From: Candidatus Helarchaeota ASGARD archaeon Hel_GB_B
GTDB taxonomy: Archaea; Asgardarchaeota; Lokiarchaeia; Helarchaeales; HEL-GB-B
Length of the DNA: 6,264 nucleotides
Assembly: GCA_005191425.1 (NCBI GenBank)
Contig: SUPR01000157.1
Location: 1-6,264, forward strand
Direction of reading: 5' to 3'
This document shows positions 4,957-6,264 of this stretch, one piece after another (position 1 is the first letter of the stretch; each line of letters begins with the position of its first letter). Below the pieces are notes generated by a model. It did no database searches. It was not told where the DNA came from and saw only the letters and a list, made by a program, of their open reading frames with translations. A program made the translations under genes and the position numbers.

Positions 4957-6264
4957 ATGGGATTAATAATAAGAAAAACGAAATTTAAATCTTATTTCAT
5001 AATCTTAACTTTTATTTTAATGATGTTGATAAATATAAATTCTGTAAAAGCTTATTCTTCATTTTCAGATATTGATTTTAATAAACCACATTATAATTAT
5101 ACACAAAATCCACCAGCATATTTTGTGAATATAACACCTACTTAAGATTGAAAAAAAACAGACATAGATTTTTCTGGGAGTATTGGTAAGGCAGGTGAAT
5201 TTGCGCTTGAATTATCAAAAAGTTTTAATTTGAAAGGTAAGATGCCCGGAAAACTCGCTATTGTGGAAGGGAGCTTGGATTTTGGAATTAGATTAGGATT
5301 AAGATATAATATTTCTTTTGGATATATTTTTGGGGTAGATTATTATCATTGGGCTAATAATATGGCGGTTTCATCTGGAGATAAATTCACCTATTGTACT
5401 TATATAGAGCCAGACCCAGATAAATTTAATCTTTGGGCGGACATTTCAATCGAGTCATTTCTTGAATTATGGGGTAATTTTAAGACACATCTTGATTTAA
5501 GTGGCTATGAAATAGTGGATTGGAATAAATCATGGAATTATTTTCAAACATTACCTATTAGTTTAGAGCCAAATATTAACTTAAAATCATTATTTGAGAC
5601 CGGTCTGCTTACACCCATTGGTGACCTTTATTCAACACCCAAAATAGGACTTGGTATTGAAATTCCGGGTAGACTTGAATTTGACATAGGTTTTTTAAAT
5701 TTTTATTTTGATTTTGGTGCAGGTGCATTTGCACAATTTCAAATTAAAGGGTTAATAGAAGATTTATTACAAATAGGGGGTAATTCAGGTGCTCAAATAG
5801 ATGGTAATAAGGGTCATATAACTTTGAAATATTATGATATTGGTAAAGATAATATAAAATCAATTGAAATTAGAGTACCGGCTTCATCTTTAGGCAAAAC
5901 TCTGGAAATTATTAGTAAAAATTTTAAATATAAGGTCAAGCCAGGAATTTTAATTGGGACTGAAGGACATATTAATTTAGGGTTTCATCTTCATATCCCA
6001 ACTCCGACAATACAAGTTGAGAAAACCGTGGAAGTTGTTGATGAGGTTTGTGATTGGCTTCCATTTGGGGGGTGGGCTTGTCATAAAGTAACAAAAGTTG
6101 TAAAGAAAGTGGTGGATGTTGTAGATATAATTTGTGATGATATTGACTATAACTTTGGTTGGAACTGGAATGTAGAAAAAGAATGGTGGATTCCTTTTTT
6201 TAGTGTACCTCTTTTATCTTCGTTGGCAATTGCTGTTGATAAATTTACTATTATGTCGTCAGTT
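4957..6264 (+). pseudogene. Long secreted beta-rich protein gene, interrupted by two stops at 5143 (TAA) and 5149 (TGA), 3'-truncated by the window; pseudogene or local sequence error
   Basis: Frame 1 encodes a signal peptide (MGLIIRKTKFKSYFIILTFILMMLININSVKA|Y), then ...VNITPT*D*KKTDIDFSGSIG..., then 371 stop-free codons (5152-6264, translated by hand). Sequons NYT, NIT, NIS and NKS are present. The first downstream ATG is at 5242. Confidence 0.75.

Follow-up and report, generated by a model that had tools for sequence, protein, structure and literature searches.

Positions 4957–6264 of the contig analysed here are very probably the 5' end of a strain-specific pseudogene, which derives from a gene for a putative surface protein of about 2,630 residues in Candidatus Helarchaeota (Asgard archaea) and is decaying under GC-to-AT pressure. 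The gene appears to be dead in the sampled lineage, and its two in-frame stop codons are most likely ordinary knock-outs and not a signal of recoding. The window, which is the whole stretch of DNA that was analysed, is the entire contig C67 (6,264 bp) of a metagenome-assembled genome (MAG) of 3.54 Mb, having a GC content of 28% and consisting of 182 contigs.

The frame that opens with the ATG at 4957 runs for 62 codons, is interrupted by TAA (5143–5145), GAT and TGA (5149–5151), next to an A8 run at 5151–5158, and then remains open for 371 codons up to 6264, where the contig ends and cuts the frame, so that only 436 codons, the first of a giant gene, are within the window. Given the base composition of this region, 8.4% of the codons would be expected to be stops, and the chance of finding 371 stop-free codons is about 6e-15. 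The initial annotation had described this region as one frame broken only by TAA-GAT-TGA beside the A8 run, and its frame, coordinates and open length are all confirmed. The four N-x-S/T sequons that it pointed out are also real, being located at codons 47, 58, 118 and 190. ORF calling with translation table 11 generates only the 62-residue piece and a 345-residue piece that begins at TTG 5230, and when the ORFs are listed with table 4 the frame is still unmerged and the picture is the same. The signal-peptide character of the first codons was read from the sequence by eye, and the pattern of n-, h- and c-regions is kept in four orthologs. At 4969–4971 the window has ATA, where ATG is found at the aligned start of the ortholog in genome G001 and at the annotated start of the NCBI proteins P0004 and P0030; an in-frame ATG is left at 4957. 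The features of the window are collected in Table 1.

Table 1. Features of the window (contig C67). G001, G004 and G006 are related genomes with an ortholog, X2, X3 and X4 are sequencing runs with sister-strain contigs and P0004 is an NCBI protein.
Feature	Position	Strand	Remarks
264-residue ORF	1138..1932	+	sub-threshold Uma2 match (PF05685, putative restriction endonuclease), 21 bits, cut-off 27
Decayed IS5-like insertion sequence	1927..3298		terminal inverted repeats of 26 nt at 1927–1952 and 3273–3298, 85% complementary
141-residue multi-pass membrane ORF	3321..3746	+	adjoins the VIT1 gene; no family match
VIT1/CCC1-family transporter gene	3807..4502	-	intact; PF01988, 113 bits
Intergenic region upstream of the pseudogene	4700..4956		extremely AT-rich (13% GC at 4501–5000)
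Pseudogene, codons 1–62	4957..5142	+	basic N-terminus, hydrophobic core, VKA|YS-type signal-peptide region, then the conserved motif SFSD..PHY..FVN
In-frame TAA at a conserved Gln codon	5143..5145	+	C-to-T at 5143; CAA/CAG/CAA in G001/G004/G006; C in X2, X3 and X4; Q in P0004
In-frame TGA at an invariant Trp codon	5149..5151	+	G-to-A at 5151, A7 to A8; TGG in G001, G004 and G006; G in X2, X3 and X4; W in P0004
Orphan beta-rich N-terminal domain	5152..6264	+	371 codons without a stop up to the contig end; rich in derived GC-to-AT changes that are nonsynonymous

Orthologs and sister strains across the junction

In a six-frame search of 40 related genomes, the protein is present in three, one of the same genus (G001, 66% identity) and two of the same order (G004 and G006, 54–56%). 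The frames of these orthologs are unbroken over 1,150+ codons in G001, where a contig end cuts the gene, over 2,559 codons in G004 and over 2,554 codons in G006. In all three, the point that matches 5152 is preceded by some 60 N-terminal codons whose pattern resembles a signal peptide, and both the protein and the DNA alignments over the junction (96 columns at the DNA level) are gapless, showing substitutions only. Closer relatives are found among the Logan contigs of three hydrothermal-vent runs (X2, X3 and X4, from three studies), which are about 97% identical to the window and have C at 5143 and G at 5151. When the sister strain is compared with the window, no indel is found within 4957–6264.

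The same is seen at the protein level. P0004, from a Ca. Helarchaeota MAG, is 95% identical to the window and reads ...TPTQDWKKTD... at the junction, and its cluster includes two intact full-length orthologs, P0030 and P0036, of 2,631 residues each. P0030 (MHA1310359.1, named 'FG-GAP-like repeat-containing protein' by NCBI) is encoded on a 123-kb contig of Candidatus Helarchaeota archaeon and is 95% identical over 432 aligned window codons and 91–92% identical over the pieces of contig C176, which are described below. In P0030 numbering, the TAA and the TGA of the window correspond to residues 59 and 61. A paralog of the N-terminal part is not found in the own genome, no synteny with G001 is found upstream of the gene, and scans of metagenomes with the exact pattern of both junction alleles, or guided by the protein P0035, gave no matches in a collection that may leave out records close to this genome.

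From these alignments, the break is best described as a C-to-T transition at 5143 plus a G-to-A transition at 5151, without an indel. Two nonsense substitutions had been among the options of the initial annotation, with Tyr-Asp-Trp as an example of the ancestral residues; the substitutions are right, and the aligned orthologs show that the ancestral residues are Gln-x-Trp (QDW in P0004). Its view that the segment with the signal peptide belongs to the same gene as the domain downstream also stands, as all orthologs are continuous over the junction.

Further lesions, constraint and mutation spectrum

When the orthologs are used as tblastn queries, the C-terminal part of the gene is located at the start of another contig of the own genome, C176. 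We infer that two parts of the same gene are located on C67 and C176, as each is the single hit in the genome and both hits are at the end of a contig, in compatible orientations. On C176, the residues matching 1928–2077 of the G004 ortholog are encoded in frame 3 (nt 3–437) and the next ones in frame 2 from nt 443; at this frameshift five bases stand in for two expected codons, which therefore points to a 1-nt deletion. An in-frame TGA at 1763–1765 of C176 aligns with a Trp in G001, and the G001 frame is unbroken over both of these lesion sites.

The P0004 cluster also has fragments from contigs of 4,750 nt and 7,035 nt, which belong to other assemblies. P0033, from the 4,750-nt contig, agrees with the window at all 341 overlapping residues, has its called start at Met 5242 and ends exactly before Gln568 of P0030. 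P0034 and P0035 both end exactly before Gln967 of P0030, and P0039 shifts out of frame near residue 1541; the fragments P0033–P0039 may share samples with this MAG and are not necessarily independent of it. In total there are at least seven lesions, namely two frameshifts and five nonsense codons, each of which replaces a Gln or a Trp. If the whole gene decayed neutrally, about eight transition-type nonsense codons would be expected, as calculated from the 66 Gln and 49 Trp residues of P0030 and a change at about 4.7% of the G/C sites, and five are seen in the approximately 80% of the gene that is assembled.

The comparison of the window with the X2 strain shows 34 coding differences, of which 24 base changes are in 23 nonsynonymous codons and 10 are synonymous. 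The sister allele agrees with G001 at 16 of the 23 changed codons and the window allele at one, and many of the changed positions, at which the window-derived residues sit, are invariant in all three outgroups. When these differences are polarised with the outgroups at the nucleotide level, the window branch has 18 nonsynonymous and three synonymous changes (omega of about 1 or above) and the sister branch has two nonsynonymous and six synonymous changes (omega of about 0.1), these approximate omegas being calculated with 1,039 nonsynonymous and 269 synonymous sites. The contrast between the branches is significant (Fisher's exact p = 0.004). The VIT1 gene, located 450 bp upstream on the same contig, is used as a control: only one of its 231 residues differs from the sister strain, as compared with 23/432, 13/145 and 45/565 residues in the segments of the giant protein. 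The proposal of a very recent inactivation is correct concerning the inactivation, and 'very recent' needs to be qualified: there are at least seven lesions, and evolution has been near-neutral for approximately all of the time that separates this lineage from the sister strain with 97% identity.

The window-derived changes are nearly all GC-to-AT transitions, which mostly fall on codon positions 1 and 2 because AT already predominates at position 3; of some 22 changes on the window branch, about 19 are C-to-T or G-to-A. Ordinary pseudogenes of prokaryotes arise by nonsense and frameshift mutations under such a mutation bias, which has reportedly been described as a general one. Four window-specific changes are crowded into 33 nt, with C>T at 5132 and 5143 and then G>A at 5151 and 5164, the average divergence being 2.6%. 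Such a strand-switching cluster is the pattern expected from deamination of single-stranded DNA around a break, and with four sites it may also be due to chance.

Very probably, the inactivation started with two GC-to-AT transitions just after the signal peptide, two codons apart, by which CAA (Gln) became TAA and TGG (Trp) became TGA. Translation from the normal start would then stop after 62 residues, and a product restarted at TTG 5230 or ATG 5242 would be without an export signal. Later decay, which proceeded at an approximately neutral rate, would have added more nonsense codons at Gln and Trp positions, both of the frameshifts and amino-acid replacements at sites that are otherwise invariant. 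A more far-reaching and rather doubtful idea is that the sediment clone represented by this MAG underwent a genome-wide burst of GC-to-AT knock-outs, caused by a mutator phenotype, deaminase activity or a bottleneck; the predominance of C-to-T and G-to-A changes on the window branch and the cluster at 5132–5164 point in this direction. The loss of the giant protein would then be one of many such losses, and it could be adaptive, for example as the loss of a virus receptor or of attachment.

The intact protein and the surroundings of the gene

The intact ortholog P0030 begins with a putative Sec-type signal peptide, which is followed by a beta-rich orphan domain of about 400 residues (the N-terminal domain), by FG-GAP (integrin-alpha-like) repeats and by TSP3 repeats. 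It ends in a hydrophobic tail of the PGF type and has 93 N-x-S/T sequons. The FG-GAP family PF13517 is matched with 56–67 bits (Pfam cut-off 26.9) near residues 1520–1600 in P0030, P0005 and the G004 and G006 proteins. The FG-GAP repeats of the intact orthologs, near residues 1520–1800, are outside the window and are missing from this MAG. TSP3 calcium-binding repeats are found near the C-terminus in P0030, in G001 and on C176 of the own genome. They precede the C-terminal sequence ...AIPGFELHYILLIILL.LGFSIYKIKK of the ortholog and C176, which combines a PGF motif with a hydrophobic helix and a tail of basic residues. This arrangement resembles that of the PGF-CTERM and Loki-CTERM substrates of archaeosortases, but the scores are under the curated cut-offs (12.8 bits versus 19.9 for Loki-CTERM and 17.2 versus 28 for PGF_pre_PGF). 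The G004 and G006 proteins (contig C249, locus L005, and contig C25, locus L006, respectively) have another C-terminal module, in which ...GG.IPGF... directly follows an Ig/FN3-like segment and which is without the TSP3 repeats of the own genome, G001 and P0030. These differing modules therefore suggest that the tail of the giant protein has been exchanged within the order.

The N-terminal domain, which is the part present in the window, has no family in Pfam and NCBIfam scans. In an exhaustive search of 1.84 billion cluster representatives it has four matches only, all of them giant multidomain proteins of 1,890–2,946 residues with FG-GAP, CARDB or PQQ-propeller domains, and in the ESM Atlas no match at 0.9 or above and no named family is found. 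The AlphaFold2 model of 5152–6264, calculated with a seven-row alignment, is all-beta and of low confidence (pLDDT 47.4, pTM 0.36). From its domains, the intact protein is most likely a membrane-anchored surface protein that functions in adhesion or in the cell envelope. The region 4957–6264 had been proposed to encode a novel surface or secreted glycoprotein; its novelty is limited to the extent that it covers only the orphan N-terminal domain of an FG-GAP-repeat protein of about 2,630 residues, which NCBI already lists under this name for sister MAGs.

The ORF-free stretch of about 1.4 kb (1932–3320) is explained by the decayed IS5-like element, in which numerous stops and frameshifts interrupt the frame of the DDE transposase. 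This element is 87% identical to an intact copy elsewhere in the genome (C146, 9506–10873), whose 385-residue ORF matches DDE_Tnp_1 and DUF772. Hypermutation of the element, RIP-like or by a deaminase, was considered and rejected: relative to the intact copy, GC-to-AT transitions exceed AT-to-GC transitions by only 2:1 and there are many transversions, which is ordinary old decay. The stop codon of the 264-residue ORF (1930–1932) lies inside the left inverted repeat of the element, and the 3' end of this ORF may have been replaced by the insertion. Between the VIT1 gene and the pseudogene, the region 4700–4956 differs from the sister strains by six substitutions and, in A/T runs, by four small indels. 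No RNA genes were detected when the window was scanned with Rfam and for tRNAs. Concerning the whole genome, there are 177 pairs of same-frame split ORFs, which are mostly adjacent genes. A pair of same-frame open segments (183 codons, TGA and about 450–452 codons) recurs on at least four contigs of the own genome (C41, C26, C167 and C122) and probably represents a mobile element that is present in several copies and has two ORFs side by side.

Alternative explanations and comparison with known systems

It can be considered that the gene is intact in the cells, and that the stops and the other differences result from low coverage or from cytosine-deamination damage of sediment DNA. The depth of the likely source run, X1, is about 3, and none of its contigs spans 5143–5151, which leaves both stops without confirmation by reads; also, the four clustered changes at 5132–5164 are all C-to-T or G-to-A, having the chemical signature of deamination. 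Against this, the X1 contigs, which are from a separate assembly and of which three pieces are 100% identical to the window, carry the derived alleles at 5260, 5261 and 5359. The P0033 contig, which is a different one, agrees indirectly, as its protein, identical over the 341 shared residues, is called from the internal Met, which is what would result if this contig also had the stops. More lesions recur in several assemblies, and VIT1 on the same contig is nearly unchanged, so the excess of changes is specific for the gene and not contig-wide. An artefact is therefore improbable. An error in the length of the homopolymer, as the initial annotation had also suggested, does not agree with the data, because the total length of the run equals that of the relatives and the G-to-A change merely converts A7 into A8. 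A compensating +1/-1 indel pair was another of its options, and a programmed frameshift or a mini-intron of the bulge-helix-bulge (tRNA) type would be variants of this idea, which is in agreement with both other frames being locally open at the junction. Such events would leave a gap or an insert, but the 96-nt alignment with the three orthologs has neither and the sister strain has no indel in the coding region; the gapless alignment thus removes the indel pair, the length error and the mini-intron, and this group of explanations has a negligible likelihood. Equally negligible is the possibility of two genes, one for a secreted or membrane peptide of 62 residues and one for a leaderless protein starting from 5230 or 5242. 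The gene callers split the region in this way and P0033 starts at Met 5242, but no intact ortholog begins at this Met without the signal-peptide segment: every one of them is a single continuous ORF with the signal peptide attached, and the downstream part is itself broken at several more places.

The initial annotation had raised, as a speculation, that the stops are recoded. The TAA would then be read as Gln and the TGA as Trp, by suppression, editing or a changed code, and the full protein would be made. Each of the two stops is found precisely where a known natural reassignment would restore the residue (TAA as Gln, TGA as Trp), and the TGA at 1763 of C176 is likewise at a Trp position. 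In an AT-rich genome, however, the codons CAA for Gln and TGG for Trp are practically the only ones that are converted into a stop by a single GC-to-AT transition, so that a match with the reassignments would be expected in any case and does not argue for recoding. The VIT1 gene ends in TGA, and the Uma2-like and the 141-residue ORFs end in TAA; genome-wide, the open frames of at least 300 codons end in TAA (1005), TGA (216) and TAG (147). The two frameshifts in the same gene could not be overcome by readthrough, the window branch evolves at an approximately neutral rate, and CAA and TGG are kept by the sister strains. Recoding is for these reasons very improbable, although not quite to the extent of the indel and two-gene explanations.

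In the annotation of this genome, the 62-residue and the 345-residue ORFs and the C176 pieces are to be merged and flagged as one pseudogene. More generally, in-frame TAA at Gln positions and TGA at Trp positions should not count as recoding in AT-rich Asgard MAGs. The gene for this accessory giant FG-GAP surface protein appears to be dispensable in one natural Helarchaeota lineage, and, as a case of neutral decay, it is small and clean, its mutations being strongly biased from GC to AT. Questions on the biology of the intact protein, which may act in adhesion or at the cell surface of a relative of the eukaryotes, are better addressed with the intact orthologs.

Compared with its ortholog P0030, the window copy shares the signal peptide and the N-terminal domain, and the tail is also shared, and it differs by the TAA, the TGA and the downstream lesions, P0030 being intact. 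Genetic codes with reassigned stops (TGA as Trp in NCBI table 4 and TAA as Gln in table 6) have in common with this gene the in-frame stops at Trp and Gln positions, but here the same codons end neighbouring genes, the same gene has frameshifts and the sister strains use TGG and CAA. The similarity is greatest with ordinary prokaryotic pseudogenes, which also have single-transition stops at Gln and Trp codons, several lesions, a branch dN/dS of about 1 and intact copies in close strains, and which also affect accessory surface-protein genes. Nothing essential is different from these, and the one oddity of this gene is that its first two lesions are two codons apart.
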